A stretch of DNA of 64,000 nt. Origin: Candidatus Levyibacteriota bacterium. Its GTDB lineage: Bacteria > Patescibacteriota > Microgenomatia > Levybacterales > GWA1-39-11. The stretch spans positions 10,727 to 74,726 of the forward strand of contig JBLMVJ010000035.1 in NCBI GenBank assembly GCA_050255815.1. Direction: 5' to 3'. Position numbers and translations under genes: made by a program. The notes below the pieces were generated by a model. It saw nothing but the letters and a program-made list of their open reading frames with translations, was not told where the DNA came from and did not search any database. Of this stretch, positions 1,235 to 53,533 are shown piece after piece (position 1 is the stretch's first letter; every line of letters begins with the position of its first letter).

Positions 1235-1263
1235 TTGACATTATACTTTTACACTGATAAATT
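1235..1263 (+). promoter_or_regulatory. sigma70-like promoter positioned for a leaderless transcript
   Basis: TTGACA at 1235-1240, 17-nt spacer, TGa-TAAATT at 1255-1263, then 7 nt to the ATG at 1271. Confidence 0.4.
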
Positions 1264-1270
1264 TAGACAC

Positions 1271-9881: not shown

Positions 9882-10040
9882 ATGACACAGCCCTCTACAC
9901 CCGAGACCAACACCCTCGCCCATGCGCTTGCGCAAGCTTTGGCTAACCGCCAAGGTAAAAATCCACGCAAGCTGCGGACAGCAAAGGACTTTGAGTTTCT
10001 GGGCCGCGAGGTACTGAAGGTCATAGGACAACAGGCATAG
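9882..10040 (+). CDS. hypothetical 52-aa protein (first ORF of the high-GC island; below the ORF-track cutoff)
   Basis: ATG at 9882 preceded by GGAG at 9869-9872. GC-rich codons. Stop TAG lies 8 nt before the next ATG. Confidence 0.3.
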   Translation: MTQPSTPETNTLAHALAQALANRQGKNPRKLRTAKDFEFLGREVLKVIGQQA

Positions 10041-10048
10041 GAGAACTC

Positions 10049-10333
10049 ATGAACCTACTTCTGGGATACGGATCACTTGCATTCACCTCTTGGTGGATCG
10101 CAGGTACTATCGTCTTTCTTCTGATGCGCAAGCACCGGAAGACCGTCCTCTGGAGAGTGGTTTACGGACCGCTCGTGTTTATCCTCGCGGACTTTATACC
10201 TGCCCTGGCGCAAGCTATGGGTATGCGTATTTGGTACGCTGAAGGAAACGTCAACATCGCCTTCTGCCGGCATGACCCGTCAGAATTCAAGGCGATCTGC
10301 AGAGACTGCGGACAAGAGGTTCACAAATCCTAG
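10049..10333 (+). CDS. hypothetical small membrane protein (high-GC island)
   Basis: Two predicted TM helices and a C-terminal Cys-containing tail (CRHD...CRDCG). GGAG at 10040-10043 lies 5 nt before the ATG. Confidence 0.4.
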   Translation: MNLLLGYGSLAFTSWWIAGTIVFLLMRKHRKTVLWRVVYGPLVFILADFIPALAQAMGMRIWYAEGNVNIAFCRHDPSEFKAICRDCGQEVHKS

Positions 10334-10553
10334 GAGGACAGCGATTGAAGACTAGACCGCCGCCGAAGGCACTTTCCTTGGGAAGCCCCAAAAAGGCAAG
10401 CCCAAAAAGCAAGGTAGTATCCCGCAAACGCGTAAGCGTGTTCGGAACTTGCTTTCTAATGCAGAAATGCACGGGAAGAAATTCCTGGATCCTTACCGGC
10501 CCTAGTTCATCCGAATTCTGGCTTTGCAAGCCAACAGCTCATGGAGAGATGCC

Positions 10554-11990
10554 ATGAATTGGACTGCGCTACTAGCGTGGGTGATGGACCCAGTCCGCAC
10601 CCTTGACGAACTTCGGCAGGCGCACCTTGCCCTGATCGGCCATCCCAACATGGGGAACCGCGTTCAGGTGCGTGCGCGCGTGAGGAACTACATCAATCTG
10701 ATGATCGCCACCCAAGGTGGAGGAGCTCCTGCTCCTTGGCACCCTGGCATGGGCGCTCCTGTGGTTCCTCCAACGCCAACACCTGGCCCTGCGCCCGTTC
10801 CTGGTCCTGGCCCTGCGCCCGTTCCTGGTCCTGGCCCTGCGCCCATCGTCCCGCTCGTTCCGGTTGTCGGCTATCGCCCACGCATGTGGACGTACCGCCG
10901 AATGATACGGAGAGCGCTAAACGAGGGCAACACCGCCTGGATGGATACCGAACTCACGGCATGGGGAGACCCTCCGGGAGTCGGCACTCCAGCACAGCGT
11001 GCGTACCGGCTCGAGAACTTCTCGAGGTCACGGCACGGGTGGAACCGCATCGGGCATGATATCCCGGAGCTTGTTCCGCCTGGCGCACCGGCACCGGCAC
11101 CCCGCCGACAGGTGGACTACGGTCCCCTTGGGTGGATCGCAGGTGCTCTGCTGATCGCAGCCGGCGCAGCCGTACTGTTCTTCGCCTTGATTCTGCCTCT
11201 CTCCAAGTGGGGATGGGACCAGAGCTTCGGCGACGACACGGCAGTGCAGCAGCCCGGCAACCAGCCTGGTAACCAGCCCGGCGGCAACAACGGCAACGGT
11301 AGCGGCAACGCGAACCAGCCTGGCAACAACGGCAACGGTAGCGGCAACGCGAACCAGCCCGGCAACCAGCCCGGCAATAGCGGCGTCATCAAGAACTTGG
11401 CCGACGGCCAGTTCCCCTGGACACCGCCCACACCGGGTACCGACCTTGGGAACGACAAGCAGTTCACCAGCACCATCATCGAGCAGGCCAAGCAGGGAGA
11501 CTGGATTCACAGGCTCTTCAACCCTGGCTTGTTCAACGCAGCCAATAACTACGGCGGAGCCGATTCTTGGGCTATTAGCCTGAACGTCGGTCCGAACGCT
11601 GGTGGCAGCTGGAAGGGCGAGGGAGTCTCGGGACGCTTCGTCTACCGTGCTGTGCAGAATCAGGTGGGTTGGTGCCTTGGCATCCTCACCTCGAAGACGT
11701 GGAACAACATCGACCTGAAGAGTCAACTCCTCAGCGGTTCAGACCCCAGTTTGCCGATCGGATTCAACGTCCGCATCGAACCAGGGTCTACCGTGATGGT
11801 GAAGACGAACTCAGGCGAGATCAAGTCCGGCGTCACAAGCGACATGGGTGATATCCAAGTCGTTCTGCCAGACAGCGGGCTGACCACCATCTGCACTGCG
11901 TTCAGCACTGCAGCACCTACGGGTGAAAGCCAGCTTTGGGTGGGACCTCGGGACCGCTCCAAGGACATCAACACGATCGACGCGCGGTAA
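10554..11990 (+). CDS. repeat-rich single-pass membrane protein of unknown family (high-GC island)
   Basis: The listed ORF starts at TTG 10524; ATG 10554 is preferred because GGAGAG sits at 10543-10548. Contains a PGPAPVPG repeat, one TM helix (LGWIAGALLIAAGAAVLFFALILPL), a QPGN/NGNGSGNA repeat, and a ~270-aa C-terminal domain. Confidence 0.6.
   Translation: MNWTALLAWVMDPVRTLDELRQAHLALIGHPNMGNRVQVRARVRNYINLMIATQGGGAPAPWHPGMGAPVVPPTPTPGPAPVPGPGPAPVPGPGPAPIVPLVPVVGYRPRMWTYRRMIRRALNEGNTAWMDTELTAWGDPPGVGTPAQRAYRLENFSRSRHGWNRIGHDIPELVPPGAPAPAPRRQVDYGPLGWIAGALLIAAGAAVLFFALILPLSKWGWDQSFGDDTAVQQPGNQPGNQPGGNNGNGSGNANQPGNNGNGSGNANQPGNQPGNSGVIKNLADGQFPWTPPTPGTDLGNDKQFTSTIIEQAKQGDWIHRLFNPGLFNAANNYGGADSWAISLNVGPNAGGSWKGEGVSGRFVYRAVQNQVGWCLGILTSKTWNNIDLKSQLLSGSDPSLPIGFNVRIEPGSTVMVKTNSGEIKSGVTSDMGDIQVVLPDSGLTTICTAFSTAAPTGESQLWVGPRDRSKDINTIDAR
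10776..10847 (+). repeat. about 3 tandem copies of a 24-nt unit (cctggtcctggccctgcgcccgtt) encoding PGPAPVPG
   Basis: Units read directly at 10776-10799 (partial match), 10800-10823 and 10824-10847. Confidence 0.85.
11283..11360 (+). repeat. two tandem copies of a 39-nt unit encoding GNNGNGSGNANQP
   Basis: 11283-11321 and 11322-11360 differ at only 1 of 39 positions. Confidence 0.9.
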
Positions 11991-12410
11991 CGCACGGCGA
12001 TCCCAGACTCCTCGGAGTTGCCGATGGAGAGTACCTTAACGTCACGAGCACCGCCTAACCGCTGTGATGATCGTGGTCCGCCTGGAAAAGGAGGTTGACG
12101 ATAACCCTCTGGGTTGTCAGGATCCTGAGCGCAAGCTTGAGGATCTCCTCCACTACGGCGGACAGACTGGACAGTTTATGTGTTTCACGCTCCTTTGAGT
12201 TTTGCATTCAAAGAAAGTCGTGTCACGGCAAAAACTGGTTCCAGTCAGGGTGAGAGACTCATTTATTGAGAATTGATTGGATTTTTTCCATCAAGTCTCT
12301 TTTGAGACTTTCTCCCACCTACATGCCTTTGCGTCTCCCTCACCATTATGGTGAGGGACTGATGAGTATTCTTTCGGAGAAATCTGAGGGAAACGAAACG
12401 CAAAAAAAAC

Positions 12411-20039: not shown

Positions 20040-21434
20040 TTAGGAAAGTTTGCTAACCAGAGGTAATAATCCCTTTGCAGTTTCCATGGTCACGGCTTTA
20101 AACCCAAACTTCTTTGCCTCCTTGATACGTTTTTCCAGGTTCATAACCTTCTTAATCTCTCCCAACAGGCCTACCTCTGCTATGGCAGCAGTTTTAGCAA
20201 GCGATTTTCCTTTCAGGGAGCTTATGATAGACAGGCACACTGCCAGGTCTGAAGCCGGCTCTGATATCTTAAAGCCACCTACTACATTTACGTACACATC
20301 ATACTTATCCAGCGGCAGCTTTCCATGTTTCTGCAGGATAGCCAGCAAGAGTTCCAGGCGTTTCTCTGAAACACCGTTTGCAACGCGGCGGGGAAAAGCC
20401 AGGCTGGAATGGATTACTAATGCTTGTATCTCTACTAAAATAGGTCTGCTCCCCTCCATGATAACTGCTACACAAGAACCGGGGGAAGCAACAGAGTCAC
20501 CCATGAACAATTCAGACAAGTCTGTAATTTGTTTAAGGCCATATTCTTCCATACCAAATATTCCCACCTCTGAGGTATCCCCAAACCTGTTTTTAAATGC
20601 CCGTAGAATACGCACTCCGGTCATTTTCTCTCCTTCCAGGTATAACACGGTATCAACCATATGGGACAACATCATAGGGCCTGCCACCATCCCTTCCTTA
20701 GTCACATGGCCTATGAGAAAAACCGGGGTGTGAGTAGTCTTTGCAAAAGCTACAAGCCTACCCGTAGCATGGCGCACCTGGGGAATAGAACCTGCATAAC
20801 CGGGGACGTCCCCACTCTCCATAGTCTGGATTGAGTCAATGATCAGCAGGTCAAAGTGTTCTTGCTGTGCCTGCTCCAGGGCTAAATCTATGTCTGAGGT
20901 AGCTAAGATAAATAAATTTTCCGAGTTAGTTTTCCTGTCTTTTTGCAGCCTTTGTGCCCGGAGAGTAACTTGCGCTTCAGATTCTTCACCGGTAACATAC
21001 AGTATCTTGCGGGTGGCGGGTAGCGAGTGGCTTGTAGTTTTCTCACCACCTGCTACGTGCCCTTTGCTATCTGCCAGGTTAAGCGCCGTCTGTAAAAGTA
21101 TTGTTGACTTACCAACCCCCGGATCTCCTGAAAGTAAGACTACGGAACCGGGGACAATCCCGGCTCTGGCCTCCTCCCCCAAAACTCTATCAAACTCTGA
21201 GAACCCCGTAGAAAACCGCTCTACCAAATTTACTTTCACATCACTTATCCTGGTCGGCTTTGCTGAGGAAACGAATTTGGAACTGTGACTCTTTGCCCCT
21301 CTGCCCCTCTGACTCTCAGAAGTCTTAAACTCTTTCATGGTATTCCATTCCCCACACTCCGGGCATTTTCCGTACCATTTTTGCGAGTCGTATCCGCAAC
21401 TACTGCAGACGAATGAAATATTAGTTTTAGACAT
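20040..21434 (-). CDS. radA: DNA repair protein RadA/Sms
   Basis: N-terminal zinc ribbon CSSCGYDSQKWYGKCPECGEWNT, Walker A GDPGVGKST, KNRFG motif, and a Lon-like C-terminus. Confidence 0.9.
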   Translation of the reverse strand: MSKTNISFVCSSCGYDSQKWYGKCPECGEWNTMKEFKTSESQRGRGAKSHSSKFVSSAKPTRISDVKVNLVERFSTGFSEFDRVLGEEARAGIVPGSVVLLSGDPGVGKSTILLQTALNLADSKGHVAGGEKTTSHSLPATRKILYVTGEESEAQVTLRAQRLQKDRKTNSENLFILATSDIDLALEQAQQEHFDLLIIDSIQTMESGDVPGYAGSIPQVRHATGRLVAFAKTTHTPVFLIGHVTKEGMVAGPMMLSHMVDTVLYLEGEKMTGVRILRAFKNRFGDTSEVGIFGMEEYGLKQITDLSELFMGDSVASPGSCVAVIMEGSRPILVEIQALVIHSSLAFPRRVANGVSEKRLELLLAILQKHGKLPLDKYDVYVNVVGGFKISEPASDLAVCLSIISSLKGKSLAKTAAIAEVGLLGEIKKVMNLEKRIKEAKKFGFKAVTMETAKGLLPLVSKLS

Positions 21435-33598: not shown

Positions 33599-33719
33599 GT
33601 CCTGGCCTTGACCTATCTTCCCATGTTGTGTAACAACAAAGTATTGTGAGCGCTGACGTGTTTCACTTCTCTGTTCGGAATGGGAAGAGGTGGGACCACA
33701 TCGCTCTAAAGACCAAGAC
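33599..33719 (-). rRNA. rrf: 5S rRNA
   Basis: The reverse complement reads TCTTGGTC...GGTCCCACCTCTTCCCATTCCGAACAGAGAAGTGAAAC...GGCCAGGA, with helix I pairing between the termini. Confidence 0.85.
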
Positions 33720-34000
33720 TCAAGAGCAAAACCGGTAAGATCCGAATCTACTCGAATAGTTTGGGGTAACTTCTAGGCTACCCCATTCTTCTCGAATATT
33801 TCGAATTAACATTAACAAACACTAGCGCATTCGAATTGATTCGATTTAAATTCGAACCATTCGAGAATGATTTCTTAGAATCCACGCTATTTGGATCGAC
33901 CTATTAGTACAACTTCGCTGAAACAGTTACCTGTCTTACACGTGTTGCCTATCAACCTGATGGTCTCTCAGGGGTCTAAAAGAGATCTTATCTTAGGGTG

Positions 34001-34033
<33 letters not shown>

Positions 34034-34268
34034 CATGGAAATCTAGCTACCCAGCAGTGCACTTGTAAGTACAACTGGCACACCAGGGATTTCCTCACCC
34101 CAGTCCTCTCGTACTAGGGGCGACTCCCTTCAAATCTCAAACGGTTGTCCTGGATAGAGTCCGAACTGTCTTACGACGTTCTTAACCCAGCTCGCGTACC
34201 TTTTTAACTGGCGAACAGCCAGACGCTTGGGAGCTTCTCCACCCCCGCGCTAAGATGAGCCGACATCG

Positions 34269-34698
34269 CTGTCAATCCAATCAGTAATTAAGAAAGACTT
34301 AAAAACTTAAAACTGATGGTGATACTCTTGTTACCAAGAGCCTCTGACTATACCTTCATCCGCCAACTGGCGGAGCTAGTCGTATGATACAGATTATAAA
34401 TTTCTCTTTATGAGATGAATCCATATCTCACCCTCTCACCTATGCTGGTGAGGGGTTCAGTCGATAGGGTCCAAAAGAAATTTAAAATTCAGAAGTTAAA
34501 ATTCAGAATTAAATTCTTAATTCTGAAATCTGAATTCTTAACTCTATTTGAACCTCGGTATTACCCTCTTGTGTTCAGAAAGTAGGGTTTCACCGATTTG
34601 GACTAGTTATTTAAATTATTAGTACCTTGTTTTTTGACTCAAATACTAATAAATACAGGCAAGAGTATTACTACTCAGGCGCCCCGATATTTTCATAT
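34269..34698 (-). mobile_element. group I-type intron (430 nt, no ORF) after the E. coli U2500 equivalent
   Basis: Exon junction is GGCACCU | CGAUGUCGGCUC. The 5' exon ends in U and the intron ends in G. GATGAAGGTATAGTC (reverse complement of 34346-34360) resembles the group I J8/7-P7 core. Confidence 0.7.
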
Positions 34699-34742
34699 AA
34701 GGTGCCAAACCGCATCGTCGCTGTGGACGCTTGGATGCGATC

Positions 34743-34775
<33 letters not shown>

Positions 34776-35230
34776 AAGCTACGTCCCAACCACTAAGGAA
34801 CGCAGGATCACTAACACCTGCTTTCGCACCTGCTCGACTTGTAGGTCTCGCAGTCAAGCTGGCTTGTGCGTTTGCACAATACGCTCCGATTTCCGTCCGG
34901 AGTTAGCCAACCTTTGTACGCCTCCGTTGCACTTTAGGAGGCAACCTCCCCAGTTAAACTGCCCACCAGACACTGTCTTTTAGCCGTATTTTTATGCGGC
35001 ATTAAAGTAATGCTCACTCATCTTAAAGAGAGGTATTTCATTGATGACCGAAGTCTCCCTCCTATACTAAACAGTTAAAATAAGCTTGCAAATGTCAAGC
35101 TACAGTAAAGCTCCCGGGGTCTTTTTGTCCTAGGACAACCAGGCCGCGTCTTCACAGCCATCTCAATTTCGCCGTGTAAATGTTCAAGACAGTTACTCAG
35201 TCGTTCTACCTTTCGTGCGGGTCGGAACTC

Positions 35231-35548
35231 CATTGTTTTAATGTTCCAACATGGAACCTCACAGTCGCCTGTGAGATCGGACTATATCTTTCCCTTACCA
35301 AATTGGTGAGGGATCTAGCGTCTAGTCTCTGAGGGTTTTCCGATAAATCGGAATCTTCCCTGCTGATTGGCTCCACCAAGCAGATTTTTACTCTTACGAG
35401 TACTGTTGGATACTGAGCTGTTCCAGCAAATAGCTAGATTTTACACTCATTTAGGTTAACGATTGTGTTCTTACGTGACTGTTTTGCTTGTTCCTGATGT
35501 GTATCCCGATTAGATCGGGACTCGGGCAAGTTGATTTGACCCAAACCA
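35231..35548 (-). mobile_element. group I-type intron (~318 nt, no ORF) after the E. coli U1951 equivalent
   Basis: Exon junction is UCCUUGUCGGGU | (G)AGUUCCGACC. The 5' exon ends in U and the intron ends in G. AAGATATAGTCC (reverse complement of 35279-35290) and GAGACTAGACG core-like motifs are present. Confidence 0.65.
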
Positions 35549-36885
35549 ACCCGACAAGGAACTTCGCTACCATAGAACAGTTATAGTTACTGCTGCCGTT
35601 CACCGGAGCTTTAGAAAGCGGCTCCACCTTGCGGTTTCACCACCCACTATTGACTTACCGGCACTGGGCAGGTGTCAGCCCCTATACGTTACCTTTCGGT
35701 TTTGCAGGGACCTGTGTTTTAGATAAACAGTCGCTAAGTAATCTTTTGCTTAACCTGGATGTTACTCCAGGCAGGGCATCTCCCATAGGTTACGCCCAGC
35801 TTTTGTTGCCGAGTTCCTTGAACATTTGTCTCACGGTCGCCTTAGTCTACTCGACCAATCCACCTGTGTCGGTTATGCGGTACGGCAAAATATAGCACTC
35901 CTCACGAATCTTTTCCTGAAGACTGAAACTTACGATCCTCACCCTACTTTCTTGCGATTTCAGATTTGCATTCGCCACTTAATTAAACACTTTGACGGAT
36001 TTGCCCATCAAAACTATCTTATGGCTTGGACCCTGTTTACAGGGCGATCCTTTCCACTCTTGTCCATCCTTGAGTAATAACGCACTATACTCTGTAGCAG
36101 AATATTAACTGCTTGTCCATCCGGCTACCCCGCGCTTTATGACGGGCCACCGTTAGGAGCCGACTAACGCTGCGCTGACTTACATTGCGCAGCAAACCTT
36201 GGATTTTCGGCGGACGCCGTTCTCAGGCGTCATTCGCTACTCATGCCGGCATTCTCACTTGTAAACGCTCCACCATACCTTACAGTACAGCTTCGCTGCA
36301 TTTACGACGCTCCCCTACCACTTGCTCCGATAAATCGGAGTCAAATCTCCATCGTCGGTATTAAGCTTAATCCTCGATCATTTCCGGCGCCATTCTCCAA
36401 TGTCGACTAGTGAGCTGTTACGCTTTCTTTAAAGGATGGCTGCTTCTGAGCCAACCTCCTAGCTGTCTATGGAAAATGACTTCCTTATCAACTTAGCTTA
36501 AATTTAGAGACCTTAGATGGGAGTCTGGGCTGTTTCCCTTTAGACCCACGAGCTTAGCCCCGCAAGTCTGACTCTCTATTAAGTTTTTACGGTATTCGGA
36601 GTTTGATTGATCCTGAAAAGTTGCCTCTCCAGAGACCATTCAGTGCTCTACCCCCGTAAAAACATACAAAAGGCTATACCAAAATATATTTCGGGGAGAA
36701 CCAGCTATCTCCAGGTTCGTTTAGTATGTCACCCCTTACCACAAGTCGTCTCAGATCATTGCTGCGATCACGAGTTCGGGCCTTCCTCATCCTTTCGAAC
36801 AAGTTCACCCTGCTCATGGTAAGCTCACCTGGTTTCGGGTCTTTTGCAATGCGCATTTAGGTATCCCAGTTAGAGATCGCTTTCA

Positions 36886-36992
36886 CTATGCCTCCCCCCT
36901 CACCTTTCCAACGAAAATTCCAACCTTTGTTTTAAATCGAGCTTGTTTCGATAATATTTCAAAGTGGTAATCCTCATTAGAATGGTGAGGGG
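36886..36992 (-). other. 107-nt stem-closed expansion/insertion in the 23S domain II helix-25 region
   Basis: Closed by cccctcacc (36886-36894) pairing with ggtgagggg (36984-36992). Absent from the E. coli and B. subtilis sequence as I recall it. Confidence 0.5.
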
Positions 36993-37360
36993 TTAGACTG
37001 CGCAATACAAAAACTCACCGGCTCATTCTTCAATAGGCACGACGTTATACCCTTGCGGGCACTTCGTCTGCTTGTTAGCTAATAGTTTCAGTAACTCTTT
37101 CATTCCCCTCCCGGGGTGCTTTTCACCTTTCCCTCGCGGTACTAGTTCACTATCGGTAGATGTTGATATTTAGCTTTGGAGCGTGGTCGCCCCGGCTTCC
37201 CACAGGGTTTAATCGTACCCCATGGTACTCAGGAACAGGCAAGAAGTGAAAATCATTTCAAATACGGGACTATCACCCTCTTTGGTCTCTTTTTCCAAAA
37301 CGTTCTTCTATGATTTCCATTTGTGACTTCTTTTGCATTTAAGCAAGCCGTCCTACAACC

Positions 37361-37660
37361 CCCCTCACCTTTTTATCACTAACCTTTTTAAAAGTTCTTG
37401 CCAAGCTTTTGCGCGCTTCTTAAGCGCCTGCTCTCTTCTAAAAGCTAATTTATAAGAAGTATATGCTTCATAATAAATAAGCTCCCATGGCAAAAACTTT
37501 TTAGTATATATAGACTTTCCTTTATTATGGTCCGTAAATCGAGTTTTAAGATCTTTTGTTGAACCAATATAAAACTGGTCGAACTTTACACTCTTAAGAA
37601 TATACGTGTAGAACATAAGTCTATTATAGTTATTTAAGTTAGGAACAAAAAGGTGAGGGG
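37361..37660 (-). mobile_element. 300-nt stem-closed intervening sequence in 23S domain I carrying a GIY-YIG ORF
   Basis: Perfect 10-bp closing stem: cccctcacct (37361-37370) with aggtgagggg (37651-37660). It replaces the short hairpin that follows ...CAGCYCAAACC in other bacteria. Confidence 0.6.
37365..37616 (-). CDS. small GIY-YIG (URI-domain, COG2827/YhbQ-like) nuclease encoded inside the 23S insertion
   Basis: MFYTYILKS...FYIGSTKDLKTRFTDHN...E...ALKREQALKK pattern. Same orientation as the rRNA. The stop codon lies within the closing stem. Confidence 0.8.
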   Translation of the reverse strand: MFYTYILKSVKFDQFYIGSTKDLKTRFTDHNKGKSIYTKKFLPWELIYYEAYTSYKLAFRREQALKKRAKAWQELLKRLVIKR

Positions 37661-38003
37661 TTTGAGCTGTTCCGCGTTCGCTCGCCGCTACTGACGGAAT
37701 CTCTGTGATTTCTTTTCCTCGGACTACTTAGATGTTTCAGTTGGTCCGGTATCCCGCCGACTACTAATATATTAATCTTGCGACTAATAACTTCATAGCA
37801 GGCTCCCAGTTAAACTGGGGGGTTTCCCCATTCGGACACCACCGGATCATAATGTCTTCGGCCATTCCCCGGTGATTTTCGCGAGCCAGATGCGTCCTTC
37901 TTCGGTCAACACCTCCTAGGCATCCACTATTAGCATGAATCAAATAGCGTAGATTCTAAAAAACCAATTCATTAAAAACCATGCCTCGGCTTGAAACATG
38001 GAA

Positions 38004-38222: not shown

Positions 38223-38295
38223 TGGACCCAAGGAGATTTGAACTCCTGACCTCGTCATTGCAAATGACGCGCTCTACCAGCTAAGCTATGGGCCC
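38223..38295 (-). tRNA. tRNA-Ala (anticodon UGC)
   Basis: The reverse complement GGGCCCATAGCTTAGCTGGTAGAGCGCGTCATTTGCAATGACGAGGTCAGGAGTTCAAATCTCCTTGGGTCCA folds as a cloverleaf with G3:U70. CCA is not encoded. Confidence 0.95.
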
Positions 38296-44951: not shown

Positions 44952-45401
44952 TTAAGCTTTATAATACCGTTTGATTTGGAATAATAGGTAAAAACCTACT
45001 AAATCAAACACAACTCCGGAGATAGAAATAGCAAGAACAGATGAAACAAGTGTTACTACTTCTGACCAGAACATCATGTTCCACCCATTCATCTTGCCGC
45101 TTTTAAGTCCGGGGAAGGCTGCAAGCATTAATCCTGAAGAAGCAATTAACAAAACTGCTGCTAATATGCCGCTTCCGGCTGCTCTTACGCCTCCTACTCC
45201 TCCTAAGGCAGCAAGCGGAGAAAGTGTTGCCATGATTCCCAAACCTGCAATTCCTGCAAGCAATCCTAATATTCCAAAGATTAAAGCAACCCATGGAGCA
45301 AGTTTAACTAATACTTCCTGGAAGTTTTTAGGCAGGGAAGGAACTGCGGAATACCACTTCTCTACTGTCTCTATGATTGAATCAGTTGATGATTTTGCCA
45401 T
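44952..45401 (-). CDS. hypothetical small integral membrane protein
   Basis: The preferred start is ATG 45401 (MAKSSTD), preceded by AAGGAGGTG. This is the only strong SD seen outside the high-GC island. Three or four TM segments. Confidence 0.55.
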   Translation of the reverse strand: MAKSSTDSIIETVEKWYSAVPSLPKNFQEVLVKLAPWVALIFGILGLLAGIAGLGIMATLSPLAALGGVGGVRAAGSGILAAVLLIASSGLMLAAFPGLKSGKMNGWNMMFWSEVVTLVSSVLAISISGVVFDLVGFYLLFQIKRYYKA

Positions 45402-45613
45402 ATATACAAAGTCACCTCCTTTAGAAGCTCTTGCTTGTTGAGAAGCAAAAAGCTTAGAGATTCTTAAGCCCCTCGGAAAACGCTCCGTGAGGCGTGAACG
45501 AATAGTTCTGAAAAGCCGAACGGTAAGTTCAGTGGGGCTAAACAGACTATCTATAATTATTGTGTATGAAAATTTCCTTTGATGCAAGAGGACCAATACT
45601 ATATGATAGGATG

Positions 45614-47032
45614 CTAGAGCTCCAGACCCATCTGCGGGCTTGTCTTCTTCTTATCTATATGCAATATTCCATCTTCTGCATTCCATATTGCTACTTTTCC
45701 GTATTCTCCGTCAAATCCCGGGATTATTGAAATATTCCTGGACCTTACCTTCTCTACTCCTTCCGCTACGTCATTTCCCACCAGTTTTCTTATTTCATCA
45801 AGAGAGGTCCTTAAAAGGATTTCATGTTCTGTGCTAAACTTCTGCACTAAAGAGTCAAATACGGCCAAGACCTTTTGGGATGATGGCATGGAATGTATAG
45901 CCTCTGCAATGACCTCCAATAATGGGACCAGATTTACAGATGGAGGCCTGATTGCTTTAACGTCCTGTATCCATACCACCCCATTTCCGTCTTGTTTCAG
46001 GGTAAAATTCTGGGAAGGGTTTGAAGCCAGGTCCTCTACCCTATGCATTACTCCTACCGTTAAAGGCCTGCGGCATACCGGACATAATTTATCTTTTGGT
46101 GTTTCATCAGGTGAATAGGAGACTTTACAATTCCGGTGGCCGGTATAATGGTACTTACCCTCTTCAGGATAGAACTCTATGGTATAGCCCAGCTCAAACA
46201 CCTTTTCTTTTCCCCGTACCAGCCCATTCATGATGTTGCTATACGTAATATCCTCATCTTTAATTCTTGATTCCTGATTCTTGCTTCTTAACACTGTTGC
46301 TTCCCGGCCCATTTTCTCCAAAGAATGCGCATCAGAAAAAGAAACAATAGAGCGGGTGTCCAGTTCTTTAATCCGCCAATTCATAGATGGATCTGAAGAA
46401 AGCCCGGTCTCTATGGCAAAAATGTATTTAGCATACTCTCCAAAACAGTCTGTAATATGGTCATACCCTGATTTAGACCCATATAAAGAAAACCATGGTG
46501 TCCAGACATGGCATGGGATCAAAACTATACGGGGATTAATTTCAAAAAGCATTTCAGCCAGGTTTCTGGAACTGATCCCTAAAATTGGCCTACCATCAGA
46601 GGACAAGTTTATTCCCCGGCTTACCAGGCCTTTATTAACCTTCTCTGCCGTCTCAAAATCAGGAGACAGGATAAGGTTATGGATACGGTGGACTTTTCCG
46701 TTTTCTGAATAGATAGCTGCCACCTCTACTGAAAGCATAAAATAAGGACCTAAGAAAGGCTGGGGAGGCAATGCATTTGCAGGAATAAACCGGTCTTTTA
46801 ACTTGAATATACCCGGCTGGAATTCCTCAAGCTGGGAAAAGACTTCCTTAAACCAGACAGGATGGGTAAAGTCAGCCACTGAAAGGATATTAATCCCCTT
46901 CTTTCTGCCCCACAAATACATATTGGGGAGGTTCATGCGGGGAGAAACTGCACGTGAGAATCTGGAATGAAGATGTAGGTCTAAGACTAGTTCCATGCAC
47001 CTCATTAAAGCATGGAAAATTCTAAGATTCAA
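45614..47032 (-). CDS. PHP-domain endonuclease Q (EndoQ/TIGR00375)-like protein
   Basis: LDLHLHSRFSRA PHP start, IPCHVWTPWFSLYGSKSGYD, FYPEEGKYHYTGHRNC, and zinc finger CPVCRRPLTVGVMHRVEDL. The start may be ATG 46996. Confidence 0.7.
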   Translation of the reverse strand: MNLRIFHALMRCMELVLDLHLHSRFSRAVSPRMNLPNMYLWGRKKGINILSVADFTHPVWFKEVFSQLEEFQPGIFKLKDRFIPANALPPQPFLGPYFMLSVEVAAIYSENGKVHRIHNLILSPDFETAEKVNKGLVSRGINLSSDGRPILGISSRNLAEMLFEINPRIVLIPCHVWTPWFSLYGSKSGYDHITDCFGEYAKYIFAIETGLSSDPSMNWRIKELDTRSIVSFSDAHSLEKMGREATVLRSKNQESRIKDEDITYSNIMNGLVRGKEKVFELGYTIEFYPEEGKYHYTGHRNCKVSYSPDETPKDKLCPVCRRPLTVGVMHRVEDLASNPSQNFTLKQDGNGVVWIQDVKAIRPPSVNLVPLLEVIAEAIHSMPSSQKVLAVFDSLVQKFSTEHEILLRTSLDEIRKLVGNDVAEGVEKVRSRNISIIPGFDGEYGKVAIWNAEDGILHIDKKKTSPQMGLEL

Positions 47033-47307
47033 TCTGCTATTTATGCTGCCGGTTGGAATGAGGGACGGATTTTGCGCGGTTTTCTTGGTCTTCCCGGCTG
47101 GGGAGGAACCTCTCCGGCTGTCGCTTTTAATACCGGCCTATTTACCGGCTGCAACACCCGTTCTATCCCCTGACCTTCTCTATGAAAGGGTTCAGGAAGA
47201 GGCGCAAAACTTCTGCGTTCAATAGAGTCTGCCATATGAAAAAGATAATACTGCGAAATTAAAAAGAATGCAAGCTGAGCTTGTAAGGATTTGGGGGGTA
47301 CTATATA

Positions 47308-47604
47308 ATGGGTTACATGCAAAAGGTAGGTACTATTTTAGATAAATTTAACCCCGTAGCTGATAAATATATCTCACGCGAGTTTCAATCTTTTGGTATC
47401 TACATGTCAGAAGAATTAAACGATTATAAGCACAAATCCCTCTATATAAAGTTGGCAAAAACTACCAATAGGGCACTTTTAGAGAAGGCGCTCTCCTTTG
47501 TTAAAGACGCAAAAACCACTACCCCTAATAAAGGCGCCCTGTTTATGTGGAAGCTAAAACAACTCCGGGATGCAGCTGAGGGGAAAGAAGAGAAAAGCAC
47601 GTAG
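47308..47604 (+). CDS. hypothetical protein
   Basis: 98-aa ORF with no recognised motif. Confidence 0.4.
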   Translation: MGYMQKVGTILDKFNPVADKYISREFQSFGIYMSEELNDYKHKSLYIKLAKTTNRALLEKALSFVKDAKTTTPNKGALFMWKLKQLRDAAEGKEEKST

Positions 47605-47630
47605 CACGTAGTTTCTAGCAAAAAAAGACT

Positions 47631-47924
47631 ATGAATTCTTCTTATGAAAAAGTTTACATGGCAACAAGGCAAATCCCAAAAGGGAAAGTTACTACCTATG
47701 GAGCCATAGGCAAGAAGCTTAATATGTCTCCCCGGGTAGTAGGACATGCGCTTCACGCCAATCCTTATGAAGGTGACGTTCCCTGCCACCGGGTGGTAAA
47801 CCGTGACGGACGAGTAGCGCCTAACTTTGCCTTTGGAGGGAAAGATATCCAAAAAAAACTACTTGAAGCGGAAGGAGTTATTTTTCAAGACCAACTTCAC
47901 GTGAAGCCGGAATTCATTATCTGA
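47631..47924 (+). CDS. MGMT/Ogt C-terminal-domain protein (DNA-binding domain with PCHRV cysteine retained)
   Basis: IPKGKVTTYGAIGKKL and VPCHRVVNRDGRV motifs. Only 97 aa, so the N-terminal domain is absent. Confidence 0.7.
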   Translation: MNSSYEKVYMATRQIPKGKVTTYGAIGKKLNMSPRVVGHALHANPYEGDVPCHRVVNRDGRVAPNFAFGGKDIQKKLLEAEGVIFQDQLHVKPEFII

Positions 47925-48485
47925 CTACCACGTCTGGCACGCAGCGTCTCCCATACAGACTTTCCATGATATGCTGTTTCTAGGCCCATACTGGTCAAAC
48001 ATGCTATCCTTTGGATTATTAAGGTACTGGGTTACCTCTACTCCGCAGGCAATAAGCGCATATTGGATTCCGTCAGACCGGTAAAGAAAAGCTTTCTTTG
48101 TCCCGTTCCCGGCAGGAGTAGGACAAGAAGTATCCCCACCGGTAGGGTCTGCCGGCAGCGCTTGTATGTACTTAGGGGCCAGGTTGGGTATCCATCCCCC
48201 TGCTCCACCATTATTACTAAACGTATCCCCTCCGTCAGAGGAATAATAAGCGTCACCTGTTGAAGGATAATTTCCGTTATCGTTGTAATATTGTTCCAGC
48301 GCTCCCTGCAGCTGCTTCAGGATGGTACGCCTCTGGGAATCCCGTGCTTTTGCAAATTGGGTAAGGGGGTTTAGAACAGAGAGGAGGACTACAGCAAGAA
48401 CTCCTAAAATTCCTATAACGGTAATCAGCTCAATGAGAGTGAATCCGGCACGAGTTTCTATAAGCTTTGGGGCAGAAAACCTCAT
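47925..48485 (-). CDS. type IV pilin/pseudopilin
   Basis: Prepilin N-terminal motif AGFTLIELITVIGILGVLAVV. Confidence 0.75.
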   Translation of the reverse strand: MRFSAPKLIETRAGFTLIELITVIGILGVLAVVLLSVLNPLTQFAKARDSQRRTILKQLQGALEQYYNDNGNYPSTGDAYYSSDGGDTFSNNGGAGGWIPNLAPKYIQALPADPTGGDTSCPTPAGNGTKKAFLYRSDGIQYALIACGVEVTQYLNNPKDSMFDQYGPRNSISWKVCMGDAACQTW

Positions 48486-48526
48486 ATCTTAAGTTAACCA
48501 CAGGAAAATTGACTAGTCAATGAAAA

Positions 48527-48599
48527 GGAAATTAATAGATATTAATAGAAATTAAGAAATTGATTGTAATTGCACAATTAATTTCCATGAATTTCGCGA
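48527..48599. repeat. 74-nt GAAATT-rich intergenic element, copy 2
   Basis: Matches 29685-29758 apart from three substitutions and one indel. Confidence 0.85.
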
Positions 48600-48626
48600 A
48601 GCAAGTTTCTATCAGTTTCTAAGGTG

Positions 48627-50399
48627 TTATTTCTTTTGCGCTTTGAAGATTTCTTCTACTTCTTGCAGGGTGGTTGCGTCTTCCGGCTTTTTGTCATCCC
48701 TAAATTTTTCTAACCTGGGAAACCGCAAAGCATAGCCCGGCACATCTACGTCAAATGCTGACCCTGATTTGGAAGGCTTCATACTGCGTCCTGCGGTATG
48801 CACGGGGGATCGGGTCAACTCATCAGCCTTAATTTCTACCACTATTTCCGGGTTTACCCACACATCCGGCTCCAGCCATTTATCTACTTCAAACAGTACT
48901 GGCTTGTGGCTTGCCTTAATCCTCTCTGCCCTCCTGTGCAGCTCTTTCCATTCTTCATCAGTCAGTCCGGTTCCCACCTTTGCTATAGTTTCAAATTTAT
49001 CCTGTTTCTCATTGTAAATCCCTATCAAAAACGCTCCTATCCCAAAAGACGTCCGCTTTCCCCGTCCTGAATAATACCCCATGACTACACAGTCCACCGT
49101 GTCTTCCAGTTTTGACTGGTATGACCGTTTCAGCTTTATCCAATTCCAGCCCCTGGCGCCCGCCTGATACGTACCGTCTAGTTTTTTAGCCAGGATTCCC
49201 TCCAACCCCCGGGAAATGGCATCATCAAAAAAGTTTTCTATTTCTTTTGCATCCCCCAGAACCTGCTCTTCTGCCTGATAGATAGTCTTTCCTTCTTTAA
49301 TGATTCTAGAAACTGCCTTCCTGCGGTCTTTATATGCTTCAGGGATATAATTTTTTCCATTCAGGTACAGCAGGTCAAAAACCATCAGCTTCAGGGGAAT
49401 CTTTTTTGCCATTTCTTCTATGTCATACTTCCGCTTTCTTTGGGCGGTCAGCTGGAACGGAAGATATTCATTTGTTTCCGGATTGTAGGCAATTGCTTCC
49501 CCCTCCAGAATCACTTCATCCGCATCTATTTGGGAGACCAGCCCTTCCTCTACATCCGGGTACATAAAGGTAACCTCTTCAAGATTTCGCGTGAATAGCT
49601 TTACTCTAAACCCTTTCCCCTTTTCCCTCTTCAGGTGCGCCTGTAGCCTAAATCCGTCAAATTTTGGCTCTATAGCGCATTCCCCTATCTTATCTACAAT
49701 TTCCTGCCCTGAAGAAAGACGCTCTGCGCGGGCCATAAGGATGGGGGTAAAAACTGATGGCTTTATATGTGATAAGCCCTTCAAGCCATCCTCTTTTATA
49801 GTTTTTCCTATTATTCCCAAATCAGGCCGGATGTTATATGCCCGCTCAATTTCCGGTCTGGCTTTCTTATCTTTCCCCAGCATCCAGGATAAAGAATCCA
49901 GAACGGTCATATCAGAAAAGCCCAGGCGGAGCTTTGCCACCGGAATCCTGGAAACAAATCTGCGGGATAACGGATCTAAATCCTGCAAAAGCTCTGCCAT
50001 AAGACCTATTTTTTTCTCTACAGAACCCGCTCCTCCACTTTCTGCAACCTGCCTCAACACTTCAAACACCTGGGAAACCGTACCATCTCTTCCCATTTTT
50101 GTTCCCCCCAGGCTTTGGGCTATCTCACCCAAATCCCCAACTTTTTTATATTCTGCTGCAGCTTTTTCATCTGAAACAGCAAAAGCCTGGGCTATAGCTC
50201 TTACCATCATCTTGTCAGCCATCCCAAACTCTAACGGTTCAAAAAGCGGCGCTACCCTTCCCTGCAAAAGATACATTACTTTATCAAAAACGTCCGCCGG
50301 CACTTTTTCAAAAAGTTCTGAGAGAATGAGAATCATGTCATTGCGGGAAGCAGTGTTTTCCAGTTTTTCTAAATGGATTGATAGCTCTGAGAATTTCAT
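48627..50399 (-). CDS. lig: ATP-dependent DNA ligase (Lig1/archaeal-type, DBD + adenylation + OB)
   Basis: Motif I EPKFDGFR, EGEAI, EGILAK, WIKLK and an OB domain. 590 aa. Confidence 0.88.
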   Translation of the reverse strand: MKFSELSIHLEKLENTASRNDMILILSELFEKVPADVFDKVMYLLQGRVAPLFEPLEFGMADKMMVRAIAQAFAVSDEKAAAEYKKVGDLGEIAQSLGGTKMGRDGTVSQVFEVLRQVAESGGAGSVEKKIGLMAELLQDLDPLSRRFVSRIPVAKLRLGFSDMTVLDSLSWMLGKDKKARPEIERAYNIRPDLGIIGKTIKEDGLKGLSHIKPSVFTPILMARAERLSSGQEIVDKIGECAIEPKFDGFRLQAHLKREKGKGFRVKLFTRNLEEVTFMYPDVEEGLVSQIDADEVILEGEAIAYNPETNEYLPFQLTAQRKRKYDIEEMAKKIPLKLMVFDLLYLNGKNYIPEAYKDRRKAVSRIIKEGKTIYQAEEQVLGDAKEIENFFDDAISRGLEGILAKKLDGTYQAGARGWNWIKLKRSYQSKLEDTVDCVVMGYYSGRGKRTSFGIGAFLIGIYNEKQDKFETIAKVGTGLTDEEWKELHRRAERIKASHKPVLFEVDKWLEPDVWVNPEIVVEIKADELTRSPVHTAGRSMKPSKSGSAFDVDVPGYALRFPRLEKFRDDKKPEDATTLQEVEEIFKAQKK

Positions 50400-50968
50400 T
50401 TTTTAACGGGAGGTTTTACTCTAAATACCATGGTTCCACTTTTTTCTAACCTTAATGGTTCGAGAATTGTTGACCATGTGGGAGTTAATTTCCATTTATC
50501 TGCACCAATCTCTTCAGGTCTTATTTGTCTACCTTTTATAGAAAAAAATACATTCAGTACTTCCGCACGTGATCTATTATTTGTGTTTGCTAATATTATC
50601 CCTGTTTCTGTACCTTGCATACTTGCAAGTGCTCCTTCAATGCCAAAAATGCCGATTGTGCCTCTCACCTTTTTTCCAGCCCTAATACCGGTTAATAGTT
50701 TTGCTTCTCCTGGGGTTGGGTTTAAAATAAAACCTTTAGAGGTAAGCATCATGTCAGGATCGATATTATAAGCATCTTTTACGTCCATAGAATTTCCTTC
50801 AAGCTCAGTTGCACCATCTACAATATTTACCTCGCGGTCTTTAATAAGAATCTTTACCCCACTCCCAATAGCGGCATGCTCGATTGCATTGAGTGCAGTT
50901 TCCCTATCTCTCCAATCAAGTTCCTGCAAATGTGCAAAGTCTAATTCTTCTTGTAATACATCTACCAT
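50396..50968 (-). CDS. hypothetical protein translationally coupled to the DNA ligase
   Basis: 190 aa with an ATGA overlap onto the ligase start. No motif recognised. Confidence 0.5.
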   Translation of the reverse strand: MVDVLQEELDFAHLQELDWRDRETALNAIEHAAIGSGVKILIKDREVNIVDGATELEGNSMDVKDAYNIDPDMMLTSKGFILNPTPGEAKLLTGIRAGKKVRGTIGIFGIEGALASMQGTETGIILANTNNRSRAEVLNVFFSIKGRQIRPEEIGADKWKLTPTWSTILEPLRLEKSGTMVFRVKPPVKK

Positions 50969-51013: not shown

Positions 51014-52045
51014 TTAAGCCATGACGTATTTCACGCCTTTTGTCACGCCTTTCTTCTTCAGTATCCCTTTTTTCACCAAATCCTGCACTTCCCTTAACAC
51101 CGTATCCTCAGATACCATAGGAAACAAAGAACTGTATGCCTTATTCTCTATATAGCCGTTTTGTTTTATATACTCTATAACTTTTAATTGCCTATCAGAA
51201 AGCATAATAGGCCCGCCCAGCTTTTTGCGCAATCCTAAATCTGCAGAAATAGACTCAATTTTTGCTTTTATTTTAGACAGTTCTGAAGACAAGCATTCGG
51301 TGAAATATGCAAGCCATACCGTCTGGTCTCCCTTAAACTTCTCCACACTCTGGAGCGCGTCATAATATTCTTTGGGATTATTATCAAAGTGTTCTTCCAG
51401 GGAGAAAAACTGGCGGATGTCATACCCTTCTTTAAACAAAACCAGGGTAGAGAGCGCGCGCCCTACCCTGCCATTCCCGTCTAAAAATGGATGGATCCGG
51501 ACAAATTCATAATGCACTACACCGGCCTTTAATACCGGATGCATATCTGATTCTTCCTGAATAAAGGACACCAGTTCTTTTACCTGCCAGGGAACCTCTA
51601 TCACTTTTGGCGGGCGGAAAGAAACCTCTCCGGTTATAGAATTTTTAATGACTACATCTTTATCCCGGTAGTCCCCTGATTTATCCAGAGGTAAAATGTT
51701 TGCCACCACTATCTTATGCAGCTGGCGAATTGTGTCCTCATCTATGCGCTTGCCCATAGTCCGCCCCATATATTCCATGACCTTCCGGTAGTTAATGACT
51801 TCCTGTACGTCCCTATTCCGCGCCGCAATAGTTTCACCGTCTAAGATTTTTTGGACCTGGATAAGGGACAATTCATTCCCTTCTATATGGGTACCAAAAT
51901 GGACTGAGCGGACCACTGCCTCTTCCTGGAACTTTTTCTCCCAATAGGGAAGCAATGGGGCATTTTCTATAACTTCCTTTGCCGCCTCTGTACTACCAAT
52001 ATTTTTAAGGATTGCGTTGGTGATAGAAAACGTGGGTGCGTACAT
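51014..52045 (-). CDS. fic: Fic family protein (AMPylase-type) with a C-terminal wHTH-like region
   Basis: HPFLDGNGRVGR matches the Fic motif HxFx(D/E)GNGRxxR. A THIEGN-like N-terminal helix is also present. Confidence 0.88.
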   Translation of the reverse strand: MYAPTFSITNAILKNIGSTEAAKEVIENAPLLPYWEKKFQEEAVVRSVHFGTHIEGNELSLIQVQKILDGETIAARNRDVQEVINYRKVMEYMGRTMGKRIDEDTIRQLHKIVVANILPLDKSGDYRDKDVVIKNSITGEVSFRPPKVIEVPWQVKELVSFIQEESDMHPVLKAGVVHYEFVRIHPFLDGNGRVGRALSTLVLFKEGYDIRQFFSLEEHFDNNPKEYYDALQSVEKFKGDQTVWLAYFTECLSSELSKIKAKIESISADLGLRKKLGGPIMLSDRQLKVIEYIKQNGYIENKAYSSLFPMVSEDTVLREVQDLVKKGILKKKGVTKGVKYVMA

Positions 52046-52075: not shown

Positions 52076-52342
52076 TTACGAACGCTTTTCTTCAAGTCGT
52101 CTGAGAAGACCTGAGAGCTGGTAGGTCACAAAGACCGCAATAATAGTAACAATAATGGCATAGAGAAGTAGCGAGATGAGTCCTGCATTTCCGGGAAGAT
52201 ATTTCTTCACATAACTATTTACAACTTCCTGAATAAGACTATTCCAGGCAAGAGCTGAAACCAGCCCAAAACCTGCAGTTGCCAGAGTCAGCATCTGGCG
52301 GACAATCTCTATGTGAAGCTTTTGCTTTTTTTCACTTGCCAT
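52076..52342 (-). CDS. small two-TM membrane protein
   Basis: 88 aa with two hydrophobic helices. Confidence 0.5.
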   Translation of the reverse strand: MASEKKQKLHIEIVRQMLTLATAGFGLVSALAWNSLIQEVVNSYVKKYLPGNAGLISLLLYAIIVTIIAVFVTYQLSGLLRRLEEKRS

Positions 52343-52486: not shown

Positions 52487-53533
52487 ATGACGGTTACACA
52501 TCTCACTCTTCAACACCTGAGGAATCATCTGAAACGCTCATTTGAATTCAAAGATATCACTATTATCATAGGCCGGAACACTGCGGGCAAAACAAATATC
52601 CTGGAGGCGCTCTCTATCCTCTCCCATGGTACTTCCTTCCGGGCAGTACGGGATGCAGATGTAATCCAGGAGGGACGTGATTTTGCAAAAATAGAAGCAG
52701 ATGTTTCAACTACTGATGACAAAGCCAGGCTACATGCTATTTTTGCATTACACGGAACTTATTTATCTAAAAAGTACCAGGTGAACGGCGTTGCCCGGTC
52801 TCTACGTACATTTTCCGAATATTTCTACACAGTCCTTTTTACCCCCCAGGATATAGAAATAGTTACTGATACGCCTTCCCTGCGCCGCCGCTACATAGAT
52901 TCTATCCTAACCAAATCCCACAAAGAATACCGTTCTGCCCTCTCTAAATATGAAAAAGCGCTGCGCCAAAGAAACCGCATGCTGCATGATGCAAAGATAG
53001 GCCGGAAAGAATACAGACGTGCGGATTATGAATTCTGGGAGAACCTACTCATAGAACATGGAACAATAATTCATCGGTTCCGAGAGGTATTTGTAGACTA
53101 TGTTAATAATTTCAAAAAGGAAGTTTTCCAATTTGAAATGTTTTATGACCACAGTATCATATCTACTGAGCGCCTGTTTAAGTATCATTTTGAAGAAGCT
53201 GCTGCAGGTGTGACGTTAGTGGGACCACAGAGGGATGACTTTAAATTCTTCTTCCCGGGTACCAAGAAGGAAATCAAGGAGTTCGGTTCCCGCGGTGAAC
53301 AGCGGCTCACCATCCTTCAGCTCAAACTAATAGAAATTAGCTACTTGCTACACGCTACCGGCCAAAGGCCTATCTTACTTTTAGATGACATATTCTCAGA
53401 GTTGGATGCGGAGAACATAGATATGATTTACCATTTTATTGAGGACCAGCAAACCATTATCACTACCACGCACCGGGAATTTGTCCCCAAAAAAATCCTC
53501 AAGCAAGAGAATTTAGCGATAATTGAACTTTAG
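52487..53533 (+). CDS. recF: DNA replication and repair protein RecF
   Basis: N-terminal GRNTAGKTNILEAL Walker A, SRGEQR signature, LLLDDIFSELD Walker B. Confidence 0.8.
   Translation: MTVTHLTLQHLRNHLKRSFEFKDITIIIGRNTAGKTNILEALSILSHGTSFRAVRDADVIQEGRDFAKIEADVSTTDDKARLHAIFALHGTYLSKKYQVNGVARSLRTFSEYFYTVLFTPQDIEIVTDTPSLRRRYIDSILTKSHKEYRSALSKYEKALRQRNRMLHDAKIGRKEYRRADYEFWENLLIEHGTIIHRFREVFVDYVNNFKKEVFQFEMFYDHSIISTERLFKYHFEEAAAGVTLVGPQRDDFKFFFPGTKKEIKEFGSRGEQRLTILQLKLIEISYLLHATGQRPILLLDDIFSELDAENIDMIYHFIEDQQTIITTTHREFVPKKILKQENLAIIEL

Follow-up and report, generated by a model that had tools for sequence, protein, structure and literature searches.

The SoFic protein of Escherichia coli is toxic, and is neutralised by AS1, a protein of 47 residues encoded immediately downstream of it (PMC12249575). 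Archaeal EndoQ binds PCNA by means of a C-terminal PCNA-interacting protein (PIP) box (PMC4858679, PMC6202378). Homologues of SoFic and of EndoQ are found, together with an archaeal-type ATP-dependent DNA ligase, in a stretch of 64,000 nucleotides from Candidatus Levyibacteriota bacterium (contig JBLMVJ010000035.1, positions 10,727 to 74,726). This stretch is here called the window, and coordinates are those of the window. Our main subject is a gene for a protein of 190 residues, here called X, which lies between the genes for the Fic protein and the ligase. A preliminary description of the window listed X, the ligase, EndoQ and an MGMT-like protein as a cluster of four repair genes, and proposed that X is a stoichiometric partner of the ligase. 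All four open reading frames (ORFs) were recovered at the same coordinates; the Fic gene and a pilin gene within the cluster had been missed. The analysis below indicates that Fic and ligase are the conserved unit, with a slot of variable content between them. We suggest, with a probability of about 0.4, that X is a dispensable accessory modulator of this operon, aimed at Fic sooner than at the ligase, and not a core subunit of the ligase.

The Fic gene (51014–52045, minus strand) encodes an AMP-transferase of class II, similar to SoFic, whose C-terminal domain is a winged helix. Its matches are to PF02661 (1.3e-20), to the PADLOC SoFic model (2.8e-55, over nearly its full length, positions 52–340 of 361), and to the PDB structures 4rgl and FICD (approximately 1e-20). 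The catalytic loop HPFLDGNGRVGR follows the HxFx(D/E)GNGRxxR pattern of the class, in the form HPFxDGNGRxxR. The inhibitory helix, with its IEGN, is N-terminal (GTHIEGN), and the inhibitory motif has its Ser/Thr shifted by one position. X (50396–50968, minus strand) follows 45 nt downstream on the same strand, which is the position held by AS1. There are also clear differences from SoFic and AS1. AS1 has 47 residues, whereas X and its relatives have 170–190 and a predicted globular fold, and the sequences are unrelated. X is missing from many genomes with an intact Fic. Moreover, the Fic of the window is a core syntenic gene and not a gene of a defence island, and its operon continues into the ligase.

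The ligase (48627–50399, minus strand) is of the Lig1/archaeal type, as had been proposed. It has DNA-binding, adenylation and OB domains (PF04675, PF01068 and PF04679, all above cutoff), it matches TIGR00574 with 419 bits, and its closest solved structure is that of the Sulfolobus solfataricus ligase (2hiv, 4.7e-121). The adenylation lysine is K246 of the KxDG motif, and the sequence EPKFDG is invariant in the ligase alignment. The domain order is thus that of the Lig1-type ligases. The setting differs from that of Lig1-type ligases and PCNA in that the host is a bacterium belonging to the candidate phyla radiation (CPR), X has no likeness to PCNA or to the β-clamp, and the conserved neighbour is Fic.

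The gene neighbourhood was surveyed by searching the ligase alignment against one genome per GTDB species, which yielded 80 loci (L001 and so on), followed by local hidden Markov model searches. Of the 40 informative CPR/Microgenomates loci, 39 have Fic immediately upstream of the ligase and in the same orientation, the only exception being L052. The ligases of these paired loci are 43–75% identical to that of the window. Outside this group, in about 38 loci from Chloroflexota, Nitrospirota, actinobacteria and archaea, the arrangement was not found once. In genomes of the Roizman/Shapiro type, Fic abuts the ligase with a spacing of −38 to +230 nt, and the other neighbours seen in the window are not nearby. 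The preliminary description would have been refuted had the X family been found mostly away from ligase genes. This is not the case for the members examined, which all lie at a ligase, but it is Fic, and not X, that is the constant neighbour of the ligase in Microgenomates. We found no mention of a pairing of Fic with an ATP-dependent ligase in the literature searched, nor anything relevant on the DNA ligases of Microgenomates or on NAD- or ATP-dependent ligases of Patescibacteria.

The slot between the two genes is filled differently in different genomes. In Levyibacteria the slot gene usually encodes 142–200 residues and mostly belongs to the X superfamily. X is the most frequent occupant as well as the ancestral one, and goes back to the base of the clade (L032, L013, L014). 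In other loci the slot holds a response-regulator receiver domain (Response_reg; L017, L028), an S-adenosylmethionine (SAM) methyltransferase (L023, L061), a 23S-IVP four-helix-bundle protein (23S_rRNA_IVP; L054, L055), a Bro-N protein together with a protein of 307 residues to which no family could be assigned (L039:4090–5861), or a nuclease of the EEP family (Exo_endo_phos; L048:5262–5948). A protein that resembles 23S-IVP by eye, although it was not profiled, is encoded just upstream of Fic in L056 (4515–4898). The slot is without a gene in all of the Roizman/Shapiro-type loci, and also in L016, L025 and L030, which in the ligase tree are nested inside the X-bearing clade. Altogether, seven loci (L016, L017, L023, L025, L028, L030, L061) have either no X or another gene in its place, and the same is true of every locus of the Roizman/Shapiro type and of those from Chloroflexota and archaea.

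The contents of the slot turn over much faster than the genes on either side. Between L019 and L021 the ligases are 96% and the Fic proteins 94% identical, but the slot proteins only 20%. L017 has the receiver domain and L022 has X, and their ligases are 94% and their Fic proteins 96% identical. X has thus been repeatedly lost or replaced while Fic and ligase stayed 94–96% identical.

These observations bear directly on the proposal that X is a dedicated partner of the ligase, made in fixed proportion to it by translational coupling, for example a subunit that serves as a clamp, processes ends or senses damage. In its favour, every member of the X family that we looked up lies directly upstream of a ligase, and most loci retain an overlap of 4 nt (ATGA) with the start of the ligase, among sequences that are only about 20% identical. 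In the window the overlap is as described: X ends in AAAAAATGA, and the ATG within this sequence is the start of the ligase. However, X is just as invariably found downstream of Fic. The genes for the receiver domain and the methyltransferase overlap the ligase in this way too, as does Fic in loci with an empty slot (L025, L049), so that the overlap belongs to the ligase start and is not evidence for a stoichiometry of X and ligase. ATGA is the usual ending of any gene that stands before the ligase, which suggests that ribosomes terminating on that gene, regardless of its identity, are coupled to translation of the ligase. Ligases 75–83% identical to those of X-bearing relatives occur with an empty slot (L016, L025), and the ligase of L017, with its receiver domain, is close to that of the X-bearing L022. 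The ligase relatives in archaea and Chloroflexota have no such neighbour. Since X does not accompany many orthologous ligases, it is not an obligate subunit of the ligase. X is also acidic, with a predicted isoelectric point of 4.5–6.0 in all 24 sequences, which argues against a DNA-binding clamp or an end-binding role. Finally, as the preliminary description had already remarked, X cannot be matched to known ligase partners: neither its sequence nor its predicted fold has any likeness to PCNA, the DnaN β-clamp, Ku, XRCC, or the polymerase and phosphoesterase modules of LigD. We therefore regard a dedicated ligase partner as unlikely.

X is an orphan family. It has no match in Pfam, NCBIfam, PHROGs, PADLOC or the sequences of the PDB. 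Word-indexed protein searches gave very few relatives; an exhaustive HMMER profile search was productive, and of the 1.84 billion representative proteins that it covered, approximately 10 are true relatives. One further match, P0005 (3442 residues, with 14 matched stretches), was rejected as a compositional artefact, being a tandem-repeat protein rich in Glu and Lys. Every relative that was looked up lies between a Fic gene of 343–344 residues and the ligase (L001–L015, L096, L097 and one JGI contig), and the same confinement to the slot is seen in 19 loci anchored on the ligase. X is therefore seen only in Levyibacteria, and only between Fic and ligase. It has no match on viral contigs, and scans of metagenome contigs with alignments A1 and A7 found nothing.

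Across the superfamily, R96 is invariant, E30 and G35 are nearly so, and there is a motif LxPxEHxxxGSS. The superfamily consists of two old paralogue types. L013 and L031 have them as tandem genes, and in P0006 and P0009 they are fused; X has thus duplicated in place to give two ancient types. An origin of X as a duplicated domain of the ligase or of Fic was excluded, as profile–profile comparison shows no relationship. When AlphaFold2 was run with an alignment of two sequences, the mean predicted local distance difference test (pLDDT) score was 51, and the alignment of 15 sequences was needed to obtain a confident model (pLDDT 89.1, predicted template modelling score 0.87), which has a mixed α/β fold. 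The model has no structural neighbour in the PDB or among viral structure predictions, and the predicted fold thus appears to be novel.

Sequence comparisons show that X evolves faster than its neighbours. Over the same loci the identities are 20–48% for X, 70–85% for Fic and 67–74% for the ligase. In closely related pairs, the ratio of nonsynonymous to synonymous substitution rates (dN/dS) is 0.08–0.17 for X, compared with 0.02–0.07 for Fic and 0.03–0.09 for the ligase. These values are low, and above those of the flanking genes, and so X is a real coding gene under purifying selection, with a weaker constraint than its neighbours.

The weaker constraint, which amounts to a factor of 2–7, is what would be expected if X were simply a passenger: the oldest insert in a permissive site of an expressed operon, with a function unrelated to Fic or ligase. 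It fits with this idea that at least six unrelated types of gene share the slot in different genomes, that the slot is empty in most Microgenomates other than Levyibacteria as well as in three Levyibacteria, and that no fusion of X to Fic or to the ligase is present among the 1.84 billion representative proteins. A passenger would not be expected, however, to occur nowhere else in the searches, nor to have been retained from the base of Levyibacteria and duplicated in place. It is also difficult to reconcile with the tight spacing to both neighbours, which stays within −4 to +58 nt among sequences only about 20% identical. We consider a passenger somewhat improbable.

The match of Fic to the PADLOC SoFic model raises a different explanation, in which X is a specificity or sensor module of a defence or toxin system of the SoFic type, driven by conflict, and the turnover in the slot reflects an arms race with phage. 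The cassette-like replacement of slot genes between nearly identical flanks would agree with this, as would the duplication and differential retention of the X paralogues. On the other hand, Fic is a core gene, vertically inherited, 70–85% identical across Levyibacteria and in a fixed position beside housekeeping genes, unlike defence genes, which are patchy in their distribution. The dN/dS of X is far below 1, and neither X nor Fic has relatives on viral contigs. A role in defence is on these grounds quite improbable.

The reading that we prefer is that X would be an accessory protein or modulator of the Fic–ligase operon that the cell can dispense with, and that it would act by binding to a protein rather than to DNA. 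The likeliest target would be the SoFic-like Fic AMP-transferase, because X holds the same position as the downstream neutraliser AS1. Several points weigh against this. Genomes that lack X keep the catalytic and inhibitory motifs of Fic intact and identical, so that X cannot be an essential antitoxin in the manner of AS1, to which it is in any case unrelated in sequence (AS1 having only 47 residues). The genes for a receiver domain, a methyltransferase and a nuclease found in the slot fit an unconnected passenger equally well. The X-bearing genomes form one lineage with broad synteny, and therefore adjacency counts for less than it would if the genomes were unrelated. Lastly, the binding of X to Fic or to another partner is something that we infer, and the co-transcription of Fic, X and ligase is assumed from nothing more than the spacing of the genes.

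A wider proposal would be that Fic and ligase are a functional pair in Microgenomates, and that X and the other slot genes are interchangeable regulators specific to each lineage. Fic could, for example, add AMP to the ligase or to an intermediate of ligation, or remove it, and in this way tune what is possibly the main DNA ligase of the cell. We think this proposal unlikely. Both Fic and ligase handle AMP, which makes a link between them directly testable.

The EndoQ homologue (45614–47032, minus strand) was correctly identified in the preliminary description. It aligns over its full length with the EndoQ of Pyrococcus furiosus (5zb8; E = 4.5e-37, query residues 18–449 against chain residues 6–382), and it keeps the metal-binding motifs of the PHP domain (DLHLHS, HNLIL, CHVWTPW, SDAHS) and a zinc finger (H..C...CPVC). 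The first zinc ligand is a His, in contrast to the Cys of the archaeal protein. The profile TIGR00375 matches at 7e-42, and only over model positions 75–374; its score of 144 bits is below the curated cutoff of 326.6. The homology to 5zb8 thus stands, although the profile does not reach its threshold, and from its sequence the protein appears to be a divergent bacterial branch of the family. Translation probably begins at the ATG at 46996 (MELVLDLHLHS), because this is how the orthologues start.

At the extreme C-terminus of EndoQ there is a short motif, Q[LMI]x[LF]x[LFI], in about 9 of 11 CPR orthologues, which in the window reads QMGLEL (45614–45640). It follows a charged linker, and occurs in forms such as QMGLEL, QMGFLI, QLGLKI, QLGLGF and QIGFNF (orthologues from L001, L017, L018, L022, L032, L042, L053, L055 and L091). 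The motif resembles the consensus for binding to the bacterial β-clamp; the archaeal protein has a PIP box in this place. It is worth adding that the EndoQ homologue of one Shapirobacteria locus (L042:9137–11683) has 848 residues, nearly double the usual length, which suggests that a domain has been inserted or fused, for example an additional module or an intein.

In 11 loci the distance between EndoQ and the ligase is less than 6 kb, and some of these are from lineages where the ligase is only 43–54% identical. L053, L055 and L056 have EndoQ 320–550 nt downstream of the ligase and in the same orientation. The proximity of the two genes is therefore old and recurrent. In the window the pair is not co-transcribed: the MGMT-like gene and an ORF of 98 residues sit between ligase and EndoQ on the opposite strand, which places EndoQ outside the ligase operon. 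EndoQ nicks on the 5′ side of the lesion, which may be dU, dI or an AP site, and leaves the damaged base in place, and the archaeal pathway requires strand displacement or excision before ligation. EndoQ and ligase are thus incomplete as a pathway, which tells against the compact nick-and-seal pathway that had been proposed for them; the recurrence of EndoQ near the ligase is in favour of the earlier interpretation.

The MGMT-like gene (47631–47924, plus strand) also lies outside the ligase operon. Its product of 97 residues matches PF01035 at 1.1e-25, and it was rightly described as retaining the acceptor cysteine of PCHRV, which lies within the helix-turn-helix DNA-binding domain: VPCHRVV aligns with the active site of 1mgt. 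The alignment covers residues 95–169 of 1mgt, and the protein does not have the two-domain architecture; in lacking the N-terminal domain it differs from Ogt and Ada. As a single domain of about 100 residues, which aligns to both 1mgt and 3gva, it is similar to Atl1 and other proteins consisting of the MGMT C-terminal domain. It differs from Atl1 in keeping the cysteine, where 3gva has PWHRV. Most of the Levyibacteria loci keep this gene in the vicinity of the ligase.

The MGMT-like gene has a companion, encoding the conserved protein of 98 residues mentioned above (47308–47604, plus strand), which has no family match in profile searches. In most of the Levyibacteria loci, and also in L055 and L056, a homologue is encoded next to the MGMT-like gene or not far from it. 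Across Microgenomates this companion has about 90–100 residues and is highly conserved, with the segments DKYISREFQSFGIY and DYKHKSLYIKLAKT; examples are at L005:13055–13330, L055:11124–11390 and L056:11110–11421.

Directly 3′ of the ligase is a gene similar to those of type IV pilins or pseudopilins (47925–48485, minus strand; N_methyl, T2SSG and GspG models). It is confined to the closest relatives of the window (L001, L017, L018, L022), and is not a member of the repair set. Downstream of EndoQ there is a gene for a small membrane protein (44952–45596, minus strand), with no Pfam match, which is kept in L001, L017, L018, L022, L055 and L056. Its product probably has about 149 residues, with a start at 45401.

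On the other side, RecF (52487–53533, plus strand; SMC_N, AAA_15, AAA_23) forms the upstream boundary of the block, and a small membrane protein with a DUF5654 domain (52076–52342, minus strand; PF18898, 1.3e-19) is encoded between RecF and Fic. All the Levyibacteria loci have RecF next to DUF5654 and Fic. The same-strand run in the window is thus DUF5654, Fic, X and ligase, but DUF5654 shares the strand of Fic only here. Elsewhere, where the gene is present, it has the opposite orientation to Fic, and is upstream of RecF and co-directional with it. This looks like a local inversion of a single gene, and no notable inverted repeats flank it.

The order RecF–DUF5654–Fic–slot–ligase is constant in Levyibacteria, with the MGMT-like gene and the ORF of 98 residues a few kilobases downstream. 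RecF, Fic, ligase, EndoQ, the membrane protein, the ORF of 98 residues and the MGMT-like gene are a conserved DNA-maintenance neighbourhood of Microgenomates, and not a single operon. Scans for promoters and terminators gave counts at the level expected by chance, and are uninformative about operon boundaries.

Some other features of the window may be noted. Genes for RadA/Sms (20040–21434, minus strand; zinc ribbon and AAA_25) and Rho (7009–8271, minus strand) are present, which together with RecF means that there are further DNA-maintenance genes outside the cluster first described. The 23S rRNA gene (33883–37949, minus strand) is 4067 nt long, compared with 2925 nt for the model, and contains a group I intron (35258–35526, minus strand; 80.5 bits); further insertions are evident. 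A 5S rRNA gene (33600–33717, minus strand) and a tRNA gene (38223–38295, minus strand) are beside it, and the rRNA scan found no 16S rRNA gene in the 64 kb. Two adjacent proteins of about 712–715 residues (1235–3373 and 3376–5523, both plus strand), each with a long unassigned N-terminal region followed by C-terminal tetratricopeptide repeats, are probably a tandem duplication. The GC content rises to 0.60 at 10001–12000, against a background of about 0.43. Positions 10524–11990 (plus strand) encode a protein of 488 residues with low-complexity tracts of Pro/Gly/Ala and QPGN, a probable transmembrane segment and no Pfam match.

The link between Fic and ligase, X as a new protein family, the adaptation of EndoQ to the clamp and a replicative role for the ligase would be of significance if they are borne out. 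If the pairing of Fic and ligase holds as nearly universal in a large group of CPR bacteria, it would point to a link of AMP-transfer chemistry to an archaeal-type ATP-dependent ligase. If the two are indeed a functional pair with regulators in the slot, ligases would have a new kind of control, and the new fold of X would serve in regulation. X itself, if our analysis holds, would be a clean case of the origin, duplication and swapping of an orphan accessory gene inside an operon. Similarly, the C-terminus of the CPR EndoQ, if it holds, would suggest that an archaeal repair nuclease has been adapted to the bacterial sliding clamp. Finally, if these genomes lack the NAD-dependent LigA, the ligase described here would be the replicative ligase of these organisms, and an exception to the usual rule for bacteria.

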